Positions 1 through 8,145 of a stretch of DNA of 59,955 nucleotides are shown one piece after another. The notes under the pieces are model-generated. The model was not told the origin of the DNA and did no database searches. It saw only the letters and a list, made by a program, of their open reading frames with translations. The translations under genes were made by a program, and so were the position numbers. The stretch covers positions 1 to 59,955 of the forward strand of contig JACVXU010000013.1 in NCBI GenBank assembly GCA_015661185.1, read 5' to 3'. Position 1 is the first letter of the stretch; each line of letters begins with the position of its first letter. Source of the DNA: Bacteroidota bacterium. GTDB lineage: Bacteria; Bacteroidota; Ignavibacteria; UBA10030.

Positions 1-375
1 GCCTTCACCAGCCAAAGATAATGAAATACTCCTCCGAGTGCCACAATGTAGACCAGCCGGTGGAGCTGCTGCCATCGTCTCCCTCCCATCCATTTCACAT
101 CGCAAACCCTCGACGTAAGGCCATTGGAGAAAACTCTGGTTCTGACCAGGCATTTGCTCGGGCCGATAGACCGTTTCAAATTCATCGGAATCATACGGCC
201 CTTTCTGCCCTCGGGGCCATCGGTCCTCGCTTCTCGCTGGATCGGGGAACGCCAATGTTGACGCCAGCCCAAGGCCGGCCACGGATGCGGCACGGATGAA
301 GTCGCGACGATTGAGGTAGAGATGTTCAGGTGTGATTTCTGAAGTCTTGAGATCCCCGGTTCGATTGATCAGCAT
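1..375 (-). pseudogene. Composite remnant of msrP (periplasmic Mo-dependent methionine sulfoxide reductase) fused out of frame to the C-terminal part of msrQ; runs off the left edge
   Basis: Minus-strand translation from ATG at 375 gives MLINRTGDLKTSEITPEHLYLNRRDFIRAASVAGLGLA, a typical MsrP Tat leader. After only about 20 more residues it reads FETVYRPEQMPGQNQSFLQWPYVEGLR, which matches E. coli MsrP around FETIYAPEQMPGQ...YPYVEGLR, a region that normally lies about 130 aa further in. From about nt 98 a different frame reads KWMGGRRWQQLHRLVYIVALGGVFHYLWLVK, matching the MsrQ motif [28 protein letters not shown]. The ORF track does not list it because it has no stop inside the window. Confidence 0.55.
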
Positions 376-479
376 GCATCACCCTTCCAGTGTGGACGAC
401 ACAAGGATAGAACACACCGGGGAATGACTTCGTTCCTCGCCTGGATGCGGTCACATGAGCGCGGACGAAGCTGTGTGGT

Positions 480-2090
480 TCACCCTCTATTCTGATGCCA
501 CCAGCGGTCGACGACGTCCGGGATTTCCGTCTTCACCTCGCTCTGCTTCCACTTATCGAAGAATTTGATGTCAGCACTGCTCGGCTCCGGATCGGGAAAG
601 TCGATTTGGACGCGGAGCGGCATGGGGATAGCCTCTCCGACGATGAGAGCCTCCCCCTGTCGCAACGAGGGGAGCGTGTCGATGAGTCCGGAGAACGTAT
701 CAGACATCAGCTTGCCCACATAGCCTTGATCGACGGGGTTTGTCAAGCGGAGAATGACGAAGTTGTTGCATTGTGAGAGAATTGTTTCAGAGACCTCCGA
801 CGGCCGCTGGCTCACGATCATACAACTTACGCCGTACTTACGACCTTCCTTCGCAATGCGCTCAACCGTACGCCGCGCTGCCCCCCCCGTGGCTCCGCCG
901 CTGGGGAGATAGTTGTGAGCCTCTTCGAAGACGAGGAGAATGGGAAAGTCGCGTCGTCTGGCGTTCCAGAAATTGAAATCGAAGGCGAGGCGGGCGATCA
1001 ACGACACGATGGTGTTCACAATATCGAACGGAACGCCGCTCAAGTCCATGATCGTCACGCGGGATTCTTGCGTTCGTCCAAAGATCCTGTTCAACAAATC
1101 TGCGAACGAGGAAGACTGTACGTATTGTTTGGGCTTGAACATAAACGCGTATCTCGGATCGTTCAAACGGCTGTCTAGCCGGACAAGGAATCTGGTGAAC
1201 TTTCCATAGAACGGACCTTCCTTTGAGATGGAGCCGCTCGACCCGGTGATTCTCTCCGTGTCGTAGTATTGGAGCTTGGCCCGCACTTCTGCAAGGTCGA
1301 AATACAATGGCGTGTCAACTGTAAGGATATCCGCCAACCCGGGGTTCTTTCCTTTTTTCGATGCGACAATGAGGTCCTTGAAGACAGTGAGTTGGATGGC
1401 CGAGTTCTCGTCGCGTTCGTCAATAAATGTTTCCTGGAGCTCCGCGAGGTTCATCAGCCAGAACGGAAGCTCGAGCTCAGCGATATCGAGATGCTGGCTC
1501 GTCTCCGGGAAGGCGTTACTGTACTCATTGTGGATATCGAGGATGATGATGTTGGTGTCCGGATACACCGCCACCTTCTGCAAGATGGAAGAAACTGTAC
1601 ACGATTTGCCGGAACCGCTGGAACCGAGAACTGCCAGGTGCTTTCCGAAAAACTTGTTTGGATCCAGGTATGAGCGCTCACGTTCGAAGAGAGAGAGTTG
1701 TCCAATCGAGAATCCATACTTCCGGAACACGGAGAATACAGCGGTCAGGTCGGCATCTTCTGCAATGAAGACCGGAGAATCAACCGGCGGGATGACCGAG
1801 ACGCCACGTTCGTATCGACCGGATTTGACGGTCCCCACAAGGCTGAGGTCCATGACGCACCGCTGACTCAGTTTGCCGTTCTCAGAGAGATCGATCTTCT
1901 TGAATTCCGATACCATAGCAACGACGATGACCTTTGCCACTGGAATCAGGACATAGCTGCCGACCTGTCCAACATAGTAGATCTTGCCATTGAGTTCCCT
2001 GGCAAGGTTCTTGATGTCGGCATCGACGACGGCTATCAGAGTACCGCTCGTAACTCCCGTGACAACGCCGACTCGTTTTTGTTCTGTCAT
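480..2090 (-). CDS. HerA-like (DUF87, FtsK-HerA superfamily) P-loop ATPase
   Basis: 536-aa ORF. N-terminal barrel-like segment VGVVTGVTSGTLIAVVD...YYVGQVGSYVLIPV; Walker A LAVLGSSGSGKSCTV; Walker B-like PILLVFEEAHNY; GRKYGVSCMIVSQRPSEVSETILSQCNNFVILRL. This is the typical HerA/DUF87 layout. Confidence 0.85.
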   Translation of the reverse strand: MTEQKRVGVVTGVTSGTLIAVVDADIKNLARELNGKIYYVGQVGSYVLIPVAKVIVVAMVSEFKKIDLSENGKLSQRCVMDLSLVGTVKSGRYERGVSVIPPVDSPVFIAEDADLTAVFSVFRKYGFSIGQLSLFERERSYLDPNKFFGKHLAVLGSSGSGKSCTVSSILQKVAVYPDTNIIILDIHNEYSNAFPETSQHLDIAELELPFWLMNLAELQETFIDERDENSAIQLTVFKDLIVASKKGKNPGLADILTVDTPLYFDLAEVRAKLQYYDTERITGSSGSISKEGPFYGKFTRFLVRLDSRLNDPRYAFMFKPKQYVQSSSFADLLNRIFGRTQESRVTIMDLSGVPFDIVNTIVSLIARLAFDFNFWNARRRDFPILLVFEEAHNYLPSGGATGGAARRTVERIAKEGRKYGVSCMIVSQRPSEVSETILSQCNNFVILRLTNPVDQGYVGKLMSDTFSGLIDTLPSLRQGEALIVGEAIPMPLRVQIDFPDPEPSSADIKFFDKWKQSEVKTEIPDVVDRWWHQNRG

Positions 2091-2112
2091 AAGGATCCTC
2101 GTCTGGAAATCA

Positions 2113-3357
2113 CTAATGATCGGCTATGTTCAGCCGCTTGATAACAACGATCGTCTTATCGTCCCCTTCGTCGGACGCTGATGAGTACTGCAGCACATCG
2201 TCCAGCAAGCGTCGGCAGATCTCTTTGGCGGTGAGGTGCGCCGTGTCTTTAATACTTCGCTCCAACCGATCATCACCATACATTGCTCCTCCTCCGACGG
2301 CTTCGACCACACCATCGGTATACAAAACGACGACATCACCCTTGTTCAGATGGGTGTTGTCCACCTTGTAGACCCCATCGGGAAACGGTCCCATAATCTG
2401 CCCCGTTGCCTCCAGGAGGTCGATGCGCTTCTCAATCGCCCGGTACACCATCGGACTATTGTGTCCCGCATTCGAGTAGAGAAGCAGTCCTTTGGGGTCA
2501 TTCGAGAGCTCAGCGTAAAACATCGTAACGAATTGTTCCTCGGCAAATGTCTTGTTTACCAGTTTGTTAAGACGAGACATCAGCGCACTGATTTTCGTGT
2601 GATAGCTGATGCCCATTCTGAGTGCACCGGAAACGTAGAGTGCCTGCGCAGCAGCTCTGAATCCCTTGCTCGCCGCATCGCCGATCACGACGCTGAGCCT
2701 ATCATCCTCCTCATTGGGTAGAAGGTAATCAAAAAAGTCACCTCCCACGACCCGATCGGGAATCGAGACACCGTAAAGTTCATAGTGGTGAAAGTTCAGT
2801 GCGTGTTGCGGAAGGATACTCTGCTGAATCTCACGAGCCTTGTCAAGGTCCTTTTCGAGCAGGTACGCCTTGCGTTCCACCTTTTTCCCGCGAAGGAGGG
2901 CAGTCACGGCAAGGCTGATGATGTTAAGATCGGCCAGGAGCGACTCTTCGAGCTTTTCCGAGTTGAACGCGAGGATATACTGAGGCACCTTTCCTTTCTT
3001 CGGATCGATCTTTTCGCCAACCGCTGTCGCAGCATACTTGACAATCCCCTTTTTCCTGAGATATCGATCCGTTTCGTTCGCGATCACCGACCGATGATCT
3101 GCAAGCTGATAGAAAATGGGGTAGTTCGCGAGCCCGATCTTGTAACCCGGCTCAAGTCGTTCGATCACACCGATTTGATGGATGAGACGGTAGGAACCTG
3201 TGGCGGGCTCGTATTGCCAGATCCGCCCCCCTTTGATATTGATCATCTCATCCTTGACGATTTCGTTCAAAACGTGCTTGAGCAACTCCTTGTCCGTCTT
3301 GAAATCGTGATGTGCGAAACTTTCAATTGTTCGGTACAGCCGACGCTGGTTCATCAT
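2113..3357 (-). CDS. GAF-domain-containing PP2C/SpoIIE-family serine phosphatase (RsbU-like)
   Basis: PP2C/SpoIIE motifs: VGGDFFDY, SVVIGDAASKGFRAAAQALYV, YSNAGHNSPMVY, VVLYTDGVVEA, DDKTIVVIKR. The preceding ~190 aa look GAF-like. I prefer the ATGATG start at 3357; the track start at 3471 is a TTG with no visible RBS. The stop lies 22 nt before the HerA start. Confidence 0.8.
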   Translation of the reverse strand: MMNQRRLYRTIESFAHHDFKTDKELLKHVLNEIVKDEMINIKGGRIWQYEPATGSYRLIHQIGVIERLEPGYKIGLANYPIFYQLADHRSVIANETDRYLRKKGIVKYAATAVGEKIDPKKGKVPQYILAFNSEKLEESLLADLNIISLAVTALLRGKKVERKAYLLEKDLDKAREIQQSILPQHALNFHHYELYGVSIPDRVVGGDFFDYLLPNEEDDRLSVVIGDAASKGFRAAAQALYVSGALRMGISYHTKISALMSRLNKLVNKTFAEEQFVTMFYAELSNDPKGLLLYSNAGHNSPMVYRAIEKRIDLLEATGQIMGPFPDGVYKVDNTHLNKGDVVVLYTDGVVEAVGGGAMYGDDRLERSIKDTAHLTAKEICRRLLDDVLQYSSASDEGDDKTIVVIKRLNIADH

Positions 3358-3520
3358 AACGAGGTAGAAACCTTTTCTTGTATCGCTGTGGGGAATTTGG
3401 CCTGAACTATGAACCGCTGACCTGGCGACGAAGCCACAGATTGGGTCTTCCGCTGAAGGTCCGACAGCCAATGCCGTGCAGGCAGGGCTCTTTCACCAAT
3501 CCGTAAACACTTGGTGGGTA

Positions 3521-3549
3521 ATTTTACCTCATTTCCTGGTGAAAATCAA
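3521..3549 (-). promoter_or_regulatory. Candidate sigma70-like promoter for the PP2C-HerA pair
   Basis: Minus strand reads TTGATT, a 17-nt spacer (ttcaccaggaaatgagg), then TAAAAT. It sits in the 234-nt gap after the ABC-2 permease stop. FCB-group promoters may follow a different consensus. Confidence 0.3.
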
Positions 3550-3591
3550 ATTTGTCACCCGGCCTAACGGCTGGACGCCGAACCGTGTTGT

Positions 3592-4716
3592 TCAGTCGAG
3601 CTTCTTTCGGAATCGCAGCGCGCTGGCCACGAGGATTGCAAGACCCATCGTAAGCAACATCACTGCCTGCGGCCAGAGCATGTCGATCCCCACGCCCTTG
3701 AGAATGATCGAGCGGATGATGACGAGATAGTATCGCATGGGAATGCACAGCGAGAGATATTGCAGGGGCATCGGCATGTTTTCAATTGGAAACACGAAGC
3801 CAGAAATATACATCATGGGCATCATGACAAAAAATATTGCGGTCATCATGGCTTGTTGCTGGGTCTTCGAAATCGTCGAGACAAATAGACCGATCCCCAG
3901 CGATGTCATCAGAAAAATGCCAGTGAGAACGAAGAGCAGGAGAACACTTCCTTTGATCGGGATACCGAAGCCGAAGACCATCACGGTGAGGACGACACAA
4001 ACGTTCGTCATACCGACGATGATGAATGGAAAGAGCTTCCCAAGGATCAACTCAAACGATCTGATCGGCGTCACCATAAGCTGCTCGAGCGTACCAATCT
4101 CCTTCTCTTTCACGATTGCCATCGCCGTCAGATTCGTCGTGGTAATGAGCAGGATGAGCACCAGCACCCCGGGAACCATGAAATTCCTGCTCTTCAATGA
4201 CGGATTGTACCATGCCCTCACCTCCGGATCGACCCGGCCAGCAGGCGCCCTCCCACCCAGCACTTCTGTGAGGATTCGAGTCGATGCCCCGATGATGATC
4301 TGGTTGATATATCCCATACTGATTGCCGCAGTGTTGCCTTCACTCCCATCCAGAATCACCTGGATTTTGGCAGGCTCTCTTCTCAACACCTTGTCGCCGA
4401 ATCGATGGGGTATCACGAGCGCCATCGTCACCTTGTTGTTGTCGATGTACTGCTGGATTGTGCTGTATTCCTCCGTTGCGTATTCCAGAGTGAAATACCC
4501 GGAGTTCGTGAACTTCTGGATCATCGAGCGGCTCTCGGCGGACTTGTCCAGATCACAGACAACCATCGAGATGTTCTTCACATCCAGTGATGCCGCGAAA
4601 CCAAGCAATGTCAACTGAAGAACCGGTGCGACAAAAATAATCGGTAGCAGCCGCCGGTCTTTGAACAACTGGCCGAATTCCTTCTTCAGGAGCGCTATGA
4701 TGCGTTGGAGACTCAC
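3592..4716 (-). CDS. ABC-2 type transporter permease (YbhR/YbhS-like)
   Basis: 374 aa. N-terminal TM helix, large extracytoplasmic loop, then 5 C-terminal TM helices, the ABC-2 membrane topology. Paralogue of the adjacent permease. Confidence 0.85.
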   Translation of the reverse strand: MSLQRIIALLKKEFGQLFKDRRLLPIIFVAPVLQLTLLGFAASLDVKNISMVVCDLDKSAESRSMIQKFTNSGYFTLEYATEEYSTIQQYIDNNKVTMALVIPHRFGDKVLRREPAKIQVILDGSEGNTAAISMGYINQIIIGASTRILTEVLGGRAPAGRVDPEVRAWYNPSLKSRNFMVPGVLVLILLITTTNLTAMAIVKEKEIGTLEQLMVTPIRSFELILGKLFPFIIVGMTNVCVVLTVMVFGFGIPIKGSVLLLFVLTGIFLMTSLGIGLFVSTISKTQQQAMMTAIFFVMMPMMYISGFVFPIENMPMPLQYLSLCIPMRYYLVIIRSIILKGVGIDMLWPQAVMLLTMGLAILVASALRFRKKLD

Positions 4717-4720
4717 GCCT

Positions 4721-5848
4721 CTATCCTATCGTCCGTTTAAATCGCAGCGTGCTGATGGTCAAAAGAACTGTTGCGAACAGAGCGAGGTACACGGCCTGTT
4801 CCCAGAACGCGGCAAGCCCGACTCCCTTGAGCAGAATGCTCCTGAGAATGACGAGGTAAAACTTTGCGGGTGTAACATTTGAAAGGATCTGCAGCCACCA
4901 GGGCATGCTGCGAATTGGGAACACAAATCCGGAAAGGAGGATCGTGGGAAGGATCGAAACGACAGCCGCGATCTGGAAGGCGACCTGCTGACTGTCTGAG
5001 ATGGTCGATACCAAGAGCCCGATGCTGAGCGCGGCGACGATGAAGAGAAGTGTCGCCCCGAAGAGAAGGAGCACGCTCCCCTTGATCACCACACCGAACA
5101 ACAGATAGGCAGCGAGAAGGACGAGAGCAGCGGCAACGAGGGAAATCGCTGCGTACGGGATCAGCTTCCCGATGATGAAATCGAAGGAGTGCACCGGCGA
5201 CACATTGATCTGTTCGATTGTGTTGCGCTCTTTTTCGCGGACAATCGAGAGCGACGTTGCGATGACGGCTGTGATCGCCAGGATAAAAGCGATGAGTCCC
5301 GGTACCAAGAACTTCGCACTTTTCAGTTCAGGGTTATACCAGATGCGTCCCTCATAGCTGATGGGGATATAGTTGGCACGGCCGATTTTTGCCAGGTTGG
5401 TCAGGACAATCTTCTGTGAATATTGAAGTGTGACCACCTGAGCAAAGCCGACAATAGTCGTCGCCGAGTTAGCGTCCATTCCATCGACCAGGATTTGAAT
5501 TGAGACGGCCTCGTTCGCAAGAAGGCGATCGGAAAATCCCGATGGAACAACCAGCACCATACGCACGTGACCATCATCGAGCATATGCGTGGCTTCTTCG
5601 GATGTCGCCAGGTCCTGTTTATAGTCGAAGTACCCTGAGTTCACAAACGCATTGATGAAATCGCGCGATCGTGCGGTTTTGTCCTGATTCACGACTGCGG
5701 TCTTGATATGATTGACGTCGAAGTTCAACGCGTAGCCGTTCAGCAGCAAGAGCGCGGCCGGGACGAGCGTCAGCACGGCGAGAACACGCTTGTCGCGCCG
5801 GATGTGCCTGAATTCCTTCTTGATAATCGGGAGTAACCGGTCAATCAT
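4721..5848 (-). CDS. ABC-2 type transporter permease (YbhS/YbhR-like)
   Basis: 375 aa with the same architecture as 3592-4716. Only 4 nt separate it from the downstream paralogue. Confidence 0.85.
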   Translation of the reverse strand: MIDRLLPIIKKEFRHIRRDKRVLAVLTLVPAALLLLNGYALNFDVNHIKTAVVNQDKTARSRDFINAFVNSGYFDYKQDLATSEEATHMLDDGHVRMVLVVPSGFSDRLLANEAVSIQILVDGMDANSATTIVGFAQVVTLQYSQKIVLTNLAKIGRANYIPISYEGRIWYNPELKSAKFLVPGLIAFILAITAVIATSLSIVREKERNTIEQINVSPVHSFDFIIGKLIPYAAISLVAAALVLLAAYLLFGVVIKGSVLLLFGATLLFIVAALSIGLLVSTISDSQQVAFQIAAVVSILPTILLSGFVFPIRSMPWWLQILSNVTPAKFYLVILRSILLKGVGLAAFWEQAVYLALFATVLLTISTLRFKRTIG

Positions 5849-5859
5849 GCTTCAATTCC

Positions 5860-6801
5860 TCAGGCGGCTCGTTTCGCTTCTTGATCCAGCAGAAAGATGA
5901 AGACGTCTTCCAGGGAGGGGGTTATTCGCTCGATGTTGTCCACTTGGATGTCCCGTTGATTCAGAATGCGTCGGATGTCTCTGCGCGCTTTTTTTTCGTC
6001 GGAGACACTGACATGCATATATGTCCCGAATACCGAGGTCTCGATAACCCACGCTTGCTCCTCAAGGAGTGCAAGGGCATCAATCACATTTGAGCACTGG
6101 ACTTCCAGAATCGGCGTCTTGATGTGCTCTTCCTTAAGCTGCTTCGGGCTCCCTCCCGCGATGATCTTTCCGGCATTGATCAGGATGATATCGTTGCAGT
6201 ATTCCGCCTCTTCGAGATAGTGGGTCGTCACAAGTACCGTGATTCCATCCGCAGAAAGATCGTTGATCAACTCCCAAAACCTACGCCTCATCAACGGATC
6301 GACGCCGCTTGTCGGTTCATCCAGAAACACGATTCGCGGCCTGTGCAAGACTGCACAACCCAGCGCCAGGCGCTGTTTCCATCCCCCGGAGAGTGTGCCC
6401 GTGATGCTCTTCTGGCGCCCCTTCAGGTTCGCCATCTCCAAAACCCACCGCTTTCGTTCTGCCAGCTCGCCGTTGCTCAATCCATACACTTTTCCGTAGA
6501 AATTGATGTTTTCATCGACCGTCAGATCTTCGTAGAGAGAGAACTTCTGCGACATATAGCCGATGGTTTCTTTCACTTTTTCAGGCTGGCTGTTGATATC
6601 AAAGCCCCCCACACGAGCCGTCCCCTGAGTGGACTGCAACAACCCGCAGAGCATGCGGATGGTCGTTGACTTTCCCGCGCCGTTGGCCCCCAAAAACCCG
6701 AAGATCTCCCCTTGCCTGACTCCAAAGTTAATGTGGTCAACGGCGCAGAATTCGCCAAAGAACTTCGTGAGATTTTCGACTTCGATTGCATTTACAGCCA
6801 T
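5860..6801 (-). CDS. ABC transporter ATP-binding protein
   Basis: Walker A GANGAGKSTT, signature LSGGWKQR, Walker B IVFLDEPTSGVD, H-loop TTHY. Confidence 0.9.
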   Translation of the reverse strand: MAVNAIEVENLTKFFGEFCAVDHINFGVRQGEIFGFLGANGAGKSTTIRMLCGLLQSTQGTARVGGFDINSQPEKVKETIGYMSQKFSLYEDLTVDENINFYGKVYGLSNGELAERKRWVLEMANLKGRQKSITGTLSGGWKQRLALGCAVLHRPRIVFLDEPTSGVDPLMRRRFWELINDLSADGITVLVTTHYLEEAEYCNDIILINAGKIIAGGSPKQLKEEHIKTPILEVQCSNVIDALALLEEQAWVIETSVFGTYMHVSVSDEKKARRDIRRILNQRDIQVDNIERITPSLEDVFIFLLDQEAKRAA

Positions 6802-6831
6802 GAGGCACCATCCATGCAGGTTCGTCCTGTA

Positions 6832-8145
6832 TTACTGCAATTCGCCGATCGCCTTATCGAGGCGGGCTTGCGCAAGTTCGTGATCGACAAGCGACTGTGT
6901 GAACTGCAACTTCGATTGCAGCAACGCCACTTCTGCGTCGAGGAGCTCGGAGCTTGTCGTGAGACCAGACTTGAACTTCTCTGCCGTGATCCGGTAGCTC
7001 TCATTCGCTTGCTCGACACTCAGCTCCGCCAGATGAATCCGTTCTTTTGCCTGCTGGTAGTTGAGGTAGCTCTGCATCACTTCCAGAGTGATTCCATCTC
7101 TGAGCGTTGCGAGGGCATCCTTGGTTTGCTCATACTGTGCCTTCGCCTGATTCGTCTGATGCATGACCGTCAGATTGTTCCATAGATCGAACTGCAACGA
7201 GATTCCAAAGTCCCATGTATCCTTAAACTCATCTTTCGATGGAAGGATCCTCTGGTTGGGTCGGGAATAGTAGTAGTTTCCGGTCAGGAAAATCTGCGGG
7301 AACCATCCGCCAGTAGCCGCCACAATCCCGGCGTCCGCCGCCTTGACTCGGGACTCGAGTGCAAGGACCTCAGGGCGCTGTTGAAAAGCGGATTTGAGGA
7401 TCGTCTCCAGCTCAGGGAAATCCTTCGTCGACGAGGTCGGGGGAGAAGCGATCCCGACCTTGGTATCGAGTGCGATACCAATAGTCGAATTGAAGACAAT
7501 GGCAGCGACACGAACATTGTTAGCAGCGTCACTCTGGAGAATTCTGGAATTCGACAACTGGACCTTCACCTTCAGGACATCATTCTTTGTCGCGAGCCCC
7601 TGGTTCAAGAAGTTCTCAATGTCCTGCAGATGTGCAGTGACCTGCGTGAGGTTTTCATCCGCCAGCCGTTGGACTTCCTTTGCGCGAAACAAACCCCAGT
7701 ATGCCGACCTGATGTTGAACACAAGCTCGGCTCTGTCTTTTGCGACATCGCTCCTGGATGCCTCGGCCTGGTACGAAGCGTTATCGGCAGCCCCCTGAAG
7801 CTTCCAGCCCGTGAACAGCGGCTGCTGGAGAGAAGCGCGAGCCGTGTACGTATTCGGGATGTACGGGAAGATTGTCGGGACACCCGGAAAGGGAATTTTG
7901 AATTCAGGCACTTCGCTCAGGTGTTGATACGAAGCCAGCAGTTTCAACGAGGGAAACAGCATGGCGGATATCTCGCTCGCCTTAGCGCCAGCGTATTCTG
8001 ACTTCATTTTTGAGGCGTGAAGAACTCTGCTGTTTTCAAGGCCGATGTTCACGCTTTCCCCAACCGTAAGCATCCTCGGCTGTGCGACGGAAGCCGCCCG
8101 CCCGAAGATAGACATCACTACACAGACGATAATGTACTTTTTCAT
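6832..8145 (-). CDS. TolC-family outer membrane efflux protein
   Basis: 437 aa with a signal peptide. Two repeated coiled-coil/beta halves with typical TolC-like sequence (LLASYQ..., ADAGIVAATGGWFPQI...). Confidence 0.8.
   Translation of the reverse strand: MKKYIIVCVVMSIFGRAASVAQPRMLTVGESVNIGLENSRVLHASKMKSEYAGAKASEISAMLFPSLKLLASYQHLSEVPEFKIPFPGVPTIFPYIPNTYTARASLQQPLFTGWKLQGAADNASYQAEASRSDVAKDRAELVFNIRSAYWGLFRAKEVQRLADENLTQVTAHLQDIENFLNQGLATKNDVLKVKVQLSNSRILQSDAANNVRVAAIVFNSTIGIALDTKVGIASPPTSSTKDFPELETILKSAFQQRPEVLALESRVKAADAGIVAATGGWFPQIFLTGNYYYSRPNQRILPSKDEFKDTWDFGISLQFDLWNNLTVMHQTNQAKAQYEQTKDALATLRDGITLEVMQSYLNYQQAKERIHLAELSVEQANESYRITAEKFKSGLTTSSELLDAEVALLQSKLQFTQSLVDHELAQARLDKAIGELQ

Follow-up and report, generated by a model that had tools for sequence, protein, structure and literature searches.

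The DNA analysed here (hereafter the window) is a stretch of 59,955 nt, positions 1 to 59,955 of contig JACVXU010000013.1 (GenBank assembly GCA_015661185.1), from a member of the Ignavibacteria (Bacteroidota; UBA10030). Near one end of it, a gene for a GAF-PP2C Ser/Thr phosphatase (called PP2C below) directly precedes a gene for a HerA-like hexameric ATPase (Table 1). Bacteria of the Ignavibacteria type keep this pair together in three or more deep lineages. Such conservation points to a signalling function of HerA that has not been described, rather than to a defence system. In the open reading frame (ORF) map, every gene in the first 8 kb of the window lies on the minus strand; an operon for TolC, an ABC ATPase and two ABC-2 permeases (8145-3592, minus strand) is followed by a 234-nt gap, PP2C, HerA and a remnant of msrP/msrQ at the contig end. 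A preliminary description of the locus, made from the sequence alone, had given 22 nt between the phosphatase and the HerA/DUF87 ATPase and 234 nt between the pair and the upstream efflux operon; the former agreed with the ORF map and the sequence, and the latter is exact (3358-3591). The HerA ATG at position 2090 has a GAGGA sequence 6 nt ahead of it, and the PP2C gene ends in a TAG stop codon (2115-2113). Its start was placed by alignment at the ATG at 3357 (MMNQRR...), which is common to 26 orthologues. The frame stays open for a further 38 codons, to a TTG at 3471 (3358-3471), but this extension is not conserved in relatives, so that automatic annotation may over-extend the gene.

Table 1. 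Features of the PP2C-HerA locus (window coordinates)
Feature	Position	Strand	Remarks
msrP-msrQ remnant, mosaic	1..375	-	Contig end; context outside the module
HerA-like hexameric P-loop ATPase, 536 amino acids (aa)	480..2090	-	HAS-barrel, RecA-like core, helical bundle; 'orphan' HerA family, clade A
Spacer, 22 nt	2091..2112	-	Shine-Dalgarno-like GAGGA at 2100-2096
GAF-PP2C (SpoIIE/RsbU-type) Ser/Thr phosphatase, 414 aa plus stop	2113..3357	-	Pfam SpoIIE; conserved start and Asp motifs
PP2C domain, aa 182-410	2814-2128	-	
Coiled-coil linker, aa 138-181 of PP2C	2946-2815	-	
GAF domain, about aa 20-135 of PP2C	3300-2953	-	Assigned by fold of the N-terminal model
Intergenic region, exactly 234 nt, PP2C start to ABC-2 permease stop	3358..3591	-	Poorly conserved save one 30-nt block
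Conserved 30-nt block, TTTGATTTTCACCAGGAAATGAGGTAAAAT	3521..3550	-	Sigma70-like TTGATT-17-TAAAAT (3549-3521) plus inverted repeat

Conservation of the pairing was assessed in 80 species-level loci fetched with the window HerA. A full-length PP2C orthologue (61-96% identical) lay directly upstream of HerA in all 26 loci whose HerA was at least 70% identical to that of the window, and in none of the 54 loci with a HerA of 67% identity or less; within the window's own family the pair was present in each of the 15 genomes sampled. The search for adjacent homologues of both genes proposed in the preliminary description thus returned conserved synteny. Over 27 orthologous loci, the spacer between the two genes had a median length of 28 nt (range -4 to 312), and a purine-rich motif precedes each HerA ATG. 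What precedes PP2C varies: the window and about 8 relatives have an ABC-2 permease gene there, 10 loci have a gene for a haem-sensor-HAMP-adenylate/guanylate cyclase, and at other loci DUF3109 or another gene takes this place. Downstream of HerA, most but not all loci of clade A, to which the window belongs, carry msrP-msrQ.

The pair was also found outside clade A. In a second HerA lineage (f5, about 50% identity), the same PP2C orthologue precedes HerA in the order peptidase-DUF1684-PP2C-HerA with a spacer of 13-26 nt, while in a third, represented by Kryptonia-labelled records (L146:6521 and L147:4010), the order is reversed (mutS-HerA-PP2C-thyX). Linked loci amounted to 54 in total, and a record labelled Ignavibacterium album (L074) carries the pair. 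In the Kryptonia arrangement the HerA stop codon overlaps the PP2C start, pointing to translational coupling; mutS also often lies upstream of PP2C orthologues that stand alone in other families. With the tree rooted on HerAs of the SIR2 and DUF4297 types, the group to which the window HerA belongs (the orphan HerA family) was set apart with 97/98 support. PP2C-linked clades fell in both halves of this family, with unlinked clades nested among them, and the approximately unbiased (AU) test rejected clade A and the f5 lineage as one clade (p = 0.0014). Judged from these sequences, the PP2C-HerA link is either as old as the orphan family or was re-made several times, and is selected in either case. 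Chance adjacency, the alternative raised in the preliminary description, is ruled out by the conserved synteny within the family, the recurrence in two other deep HerA lineages (three in all), the two gene orders and the retention of the pair through turnover of its flanks.

The window HerA belongs to the FtsK-HerA superfamily: Pfam DUF87 (PF01935) matched with 115 bits against a gathering cut-off of 23.2 (E = 7e-33), and the motifs GSSGSGKS (Walker A), LLVFEEAH (Walker B), EGRKYG and SQRP are intact and invariant across clades. Its nearest solved structures by sequence are HerAs of DUF4297-HerA systems (9c1m, E = 2.4e-105; 8ziq; 8xau, E = 1e-93), 9c1m and 8xau having been confirmed as such in the corresponding papers (PMC11291478; bioRxiv 10.1101/2024.10.24.620088), and more distant matches were the HerA of SIR2-HerA (8j4u, E = 1.9e-34) and Sulfolobus HerA (4d2i, E = 3.5e-33). 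Over its full length the protein scored 519 bits on the PADLOC HerA model PDLC04105 (the best model) and 416 bits on PDLC02188. HerAs of real systems from the same class served as a yardstick, the SIR2-linked one reaching 802 bits on PDLC04105 and the DUF4297-linked one 571 bits on PDLC02188. Both curated NCBIfam cut-offs were missed, with 450 bits against 850 on NF042944 (HerA_antiphage_2) and 184 bits against 800 on NF042943 (SIR2-HerA type). Because the sequence matches to solved structures are close but the curated cut-offs are missed and the partner is absent, the window HerA is placed by sequence as a relative of the effector-scaffolding anti-phage HerAs and a member of neither SIR2-HerA nor DUF4297-HerA.

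As the preliminary description had stated, no NurA, SIR2 or DUF4297-like gene was found at the locus in the ORF map or with PADLOC, the gene upstream of HerA being the SpoIIE-family phosphatase. NurA (PF09376) had no match anywhere in the genome, which is 99.3% complete, and controls matched in 7 of 14 genomes. A genome search with PF14130 (DUF4297) likewise gave no match, but its control also matched nowhere; another DUF4297 model does detect the true system in a relative (L145). With no NurA in the genome, a housekeeping HerA-NurA identity is ruled out, and the grouping with NurA-partnered housekeeping HerAs considered in the preliminary description fails, the nearest solved structures being DUF4297- and SIR2-associated. 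The same genome carries a canonical SIR2-HerA defence pair on another contig (C227:19587-22683), in which a SIR2-like gene (402 aa) immediately precedes that for a 623-aa HerA with only 33-44% identity to the window HerA. Further SIR2-HerA positives were found in two class relatives (L143 and L144).

The upstream gene product is a member of the PPM/PP2C (SpoIIE) phosphatases both by score, with Pfam SpoIIE (PF07228) matching residues 218-408 at 137 bits against a cut-off of 25 (E = 7.8e-40), and by its metal-binding aspartates, the motifs GGDFFD, DAASKG, YTDG and DDKT being invariant in 26 orthologues. Since the catalytic motifs are invariant in PP2C and HerA alike, both are probably active enzymes. 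The N-terminus, which had been described as a GAF-like sensor, gave no Pfam GAF match even at E ≤ 1 and no profile match in the PDB. Residues 2-185 were modelled with AlphaFold from 31 orthologues drawn from the whole class, and the model had a predicted local distance difference test score (pLDDT) of 87.5 and a predicted template modelling score (pTM) of 0.80. Among the 50 listed Foldseek/PDB matches to this model, essentially all were GAF-type sensor domains (best E = 1.6e-6, TM 0.52-0.68), including those of phytochromes, NifA-like regulators, PtsP and the cAMP-binding Lcd1 GAF. The predicted fold, and not sequence profiles, thus confirms the N-terminus as a GAF sensor domain; in the model it is joined to the PP2C domain by a long helix. 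The fold of a full-length model (pLDDT 69) matched RsbU (Rv1364c), RssB, SiaA and SpoIIE in the PP2C half only.

An RsbU-type partner-switching arrangement, with a STAS substrate and an anti-sigma serine kinase alongside the phosphatase, was not found. No STAS or anti-sigma-kinase gene stood out among the ORFs of window positions 1-8000, four of which were run against Pfam, and the 11 STAS_2 and 19 HATPase_c_2 matches of the genome are all off the window contig (C157), on other contigs. Because classical PP2C-STAS-RsbW clusters lie elsewhere in the genome (C195, C238 and C356) and signalling proteins are abundant (about 30 Hanks-type kinases and about 12 PP2Cs), the window PP2C is not simply a piece of a partner-switching cassette.

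HerA paralogues of the orphan family that are not linked to PP2C (55-65% identical to the window HerA) each have a conserved context of their own. The order sucD-HerA-ndk-NUDIX is conserved in many relatives; the window's genome itself has a second orphan HerA copy (62% identical; C280:4014-5615) in a HerA-ndk-NUDIX context, and a HerA N-terminal fragment after sucD at a contig end (C191:1-168). In L035-L062, a hybrid kinase made up of response regulator (RR), PAS, HisKA, HATPase and RR domains lies upstream of HerA and a protein of roughly 430 aa with a C-terminal receiver lies downstream, in a neighbourhood that also holds CheA/CheB-like and MCP-like genes. In L151, the genes around HerA encode a PAS kinase, an RR-HD_5 (HD-domain) protein and another three proteins with receiver domains. 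The haem-sensor cyclase mentioned above is a protein of 727 aa with CxxCH motifs, Mcp40H-20 and Tll0287-like sensor domains, a HAMP domain and an adenylate/guanylate cyclase domain, and is encoded directly after HerA in L079-L085 and directly before GAF-PP2C-HerA in the 10 clade-A loci (e.g. L014-L018 and L021-L023). Its position beside the pair in relatives suggests a possible connection between cyclic nucleotide monophosphates (cNMP) and the GAF domain. Only HAMP-cyclase C-terminal homologues, and no full-length orthologue, were found in the window's genome, so that the cyclase-GAF link of the relatives cannot be claimed for it. What recurs throughout is a conserved HerA core whose neighbours are signalling enzymes of various kinds.

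In the intergenic region upstream of PP2C, the 30-nt block, TTTGATTTTC..GGTAAAAT, is kept in six related loci (the window, L006, L007, L009, L010 and L011), with the permease stop about 40 nt ahead of it and the PP2C start 165-326 nt further on, while the intergenic DNA around it is otherwise about 51% identical among the six. The block contains an inverted repeat, ATTTTC-N4/5-GGAAAT, with conserved arms and a loop that varies among the six relatives. Such an arrangement is typical of a protein-binding site or a small hairpin, here a candidate one that overlaps the -35 element and the spacer; the RNA fold of the block was not significant (z = -1.45). The block could be the promoter/operator of the pair, or an element of the upstream operon.

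At the other end of the locus, window positions 1-520 align in three pieces to the intact msrP-msrQ of the closest relative (L009), with implied deletions of about 305 and 809 nt. The missing msrP-msrQ parts occur nowhere else in the assembly, and the last 98 nt of the remnant overlap the start of another contig (C399:2-205). The degraded msrPQ of the preliminary description is therefore real in the assembly, but because the remnant lies at a contig end and overlaps C399, a true deletion is not distinguishable from an assembly artefact.

The interpretation that we tentatively favour is that the pair forms a conserved signalling unit, not an immune one, in which GAF-PP2C works with the HerA ring ATPase as its regulated output; the 'phospho-regulated HerA machine' of the preliminary description is plausible. 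According to this interpretation, the orphan HerA family would have split off from the anti-phage HerAs that scaffold effectors, given up their nuclease or NADase partner and become a vertically inherited chromosomal gene, and its paralogues would each have been wired to a different signalling input (PP2C, a hybrid histidine kinase with response regulators, or a haem-sensor cyclase). The two genes are probably co-transcribed, as we infer. A ligand at the GAF domain would lead PP2C to strip Ser/Thr phosphates, placed by one of the many Hanks-type kinases of the genome, from HerA or from a HerA-bound client, and dephosphorylation would in turn switch HerA assembly or its ATPase/translocase activity. 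We infer in each case the physical or enzymatic interaction of PP2C with HerA, the direction of control and the HerA target. HerA is taken as the output and PP2C as its ligand-gated regulator because PP2C works without HerA elsewhere and has gained no docking domain, because HerA stays the same while the input modules next to it differ, and because phosphatase-substrate operons are common, as in RsbU-RsbV and SpoIIE-SpoIIAA. HerA complexes are, moreover, known to be phospho-sensitive, since a phage protein kinase is reported to counteract SIR2-HerA and DUF4297-HerA (PMC13645617).

Several results limit the link or weigh against this interpretation. Of about 100 genomes sampled from the class, 86 have the GAF-PP2C orthologue, mostly without HerA (about 300 genomes from the rest of the phylum all lack it), and 34 of 88 examined PP2C loci have unrelated neighbours, with HerA not nearby; the basic function of PP2C therefore needs no HerA. 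Orphan HerA is confined to a few families (14/14, 7/9, 2/2 and 1/2 genomes, and 0/7 in a sister family). The earlier statement that the sensor phosphatase is the only partner accordingly holds at this locus, but through most of the class the phosphatase occurs without HerA, and other signalling genes lie next to HerA paralogues. Linked and unlinked PP2C orthologues are alike, with 409-414 aa and the same two domains, and just three PP2C columns, all weak and all in the GAF domain (E32, K42 and D134), separate the HerA-linked lineages. The HerA alignment contains no Ser/Thr columns specific to PP2C-linked HerAs; only R92, G247 and D471 differ between these and other HerAs, a difference confounded by phylogeny. 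Much of the synteny within the family is also explained by vertical descent. Finally, the TTGATT-17-TAAAAT element, which had been described as promoter-like, is present and lies inside the conserved block, but the pattern match alone (9/12) is not above chance (2 sites relative to 2.5 expected from shuffling).

The alternative that survives best, although we consider it doubtful, assigns the roles the other way round, with the HerA hexamer as sensor or platform (for example for DNA ends, or foreign or damaged DNA) and GAF-PP2C as the output in the upstream effector slot. A nucleic-acid signal would then result in protein dephosphorylation, and at the paralogous loci in phosphorelay or cNMP output. 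The nearest solved HerA relatives work in this way, genuine SIR2-HerA and DUF4297-HerA loci in the same class likewise have the effector ahead of HerA, one conserved HerA core has variable enzymatic neighbours, and the three weakly discriminating residues of linked PP2Cs are all in the GAF domain. However, PP2C has the same length and build whether linked or not and has gained no HerA-docking domain comparable to the DUF4297 C-terminal domain, it is widespread without HerA, and the gene order is reversed in Kryptonia. Marginally more doubtful still is the wider proposal that orphan HerAs form a hub for signalling that arose from anti-phage immunity, in which a ring sensing DNA ends or foreign or damaged nucleic acid would be coupled to interchangeable signalling enzymes (GAF-PP2C here, and hybrid kinase/response regulators or the haem-sensor cyclase at the paralogous loci) and no longer to a nuclease or NADase. 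If this were true, nucleic-acid events would feed into cellular phospho- and cNMP signalling through a non-suicidal alarm pathway, and the family would represent a new functional class of HerA.

It is unlikely that the two genes are merely co-expressed or neutrally linked, sharing a promoter or regulon (for example for redox or envelope stress, together with msrPQ) while their products neither interact nor regulate each other. The entire PP2C-HerA-msrP-msrQ neighbourhood is syntenic within the family, PP2C works alone elsewhere, and an interface or phosphosite signal was looked for in the HerA and PP2C alignments and none was found, all of which would fit such a linkage; against it, the adjacency has been kept or re-created in three deep lineages, in two orders, between unrelated flanks and with genes that overlap or lie very close together. 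A new two-gene anti-phage system, with PP2C as effector or guard of HerA (for example a phosphatase undoing the inactivation of HerA by a phage kinase), is highly improbable, for although the window HerA is most similar to anti-phage HerAs and phage kinases are reported to counter HerA systems (PMC13645617), the locus has no toxic effector, PP2C has no PADLOC match, HerA is far under the curated cut-offs, the position is fixed and syntenic across the family with vertical descent (70-98% identity), mobile or defence genes were not seen nearby, and the genome already has a canonical SIR2-HerA (C227) elsewhere. The 'defence module' of the preliminary description is not supported by these data.

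Returning to the favoured interpretation of a signal-controlled HerA, full-text searches of the available library found no paper tying HerA to PP2C, SpoIIE or Ignavibacteria, in agreement with the earlier remark that no description of the phosphatase-HerA combination was known. To our knowledge, the only roles established for HerA ATPases are those of motor or scaffold, serving nucleases (NurA and DUF4297) or NADases (SIR2). The orphan HerA would instead have swapped its former partners for signalling enzymes and be inherited as a core chromosomal gene. If so, HerA biology would no longer be limited to DNA repair and abortive immunity but would include the regulated physiology of the cell, and the family would be a concrete case of a domesticated immune scaffold. 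The system is testable, as the record labelled Ignavibacterium album has the pair and the proteins are ordinary soluble enzymes.

Among known systems, the locus resembles DUF4297-HerA (PDB 9c1m, 8xau and 8ziq; PMC11291478; bioRxiv 10.1101/2024.10.24.620088) in having two co-oriented genes with the partner upstream, and a HerA of the same three-domain build and motifs. It differs in that the partner is a GAF-PP2C in place of a nuclease of the Cap4 type whose C-terminal domain binds HerA, and in the score of its HerA on the DUF4297-type PADLOC model (416 bits relative to 571 for the true member of the same class). With SIR2-HerA (PDB 8j4u and 8su9) the locus shares a HerA hexamer combined with one enzyme encoded upstream, and PDLC04105 is the best model for the window HerA too, but a SIR2 gene is absent here, the genuine pair being on C227. 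In contrast to the HerA of DUF4297-HerA, that of the window is chromosomal and vertically inherited, and in the tree it stands apart from the HerAs of both systems (97/98). HerA-NurA of DNA end resection (archaea, Deinococcus and Thermus; PDB 4d2i) likewise includes an FtsK-HerA superfamily ATPase with a HAS-barrel; the similarity is distant (4d2i as given above, and 142-145 bits relative to NCBIfam cut-offs of 800-970), and the present genome is without NurA. Finally, the window PP2C is built like the partner-switching phosphatases of the RsbU/SpoIIE/SiaA type, from a sensor domain, a coiled-coil linker and a PP2C domain with intact catalytic Asp residues, but where these have a STAS or anti-sigma-kinase gene as neighbour, the window PP2C has a HerA ATPase.

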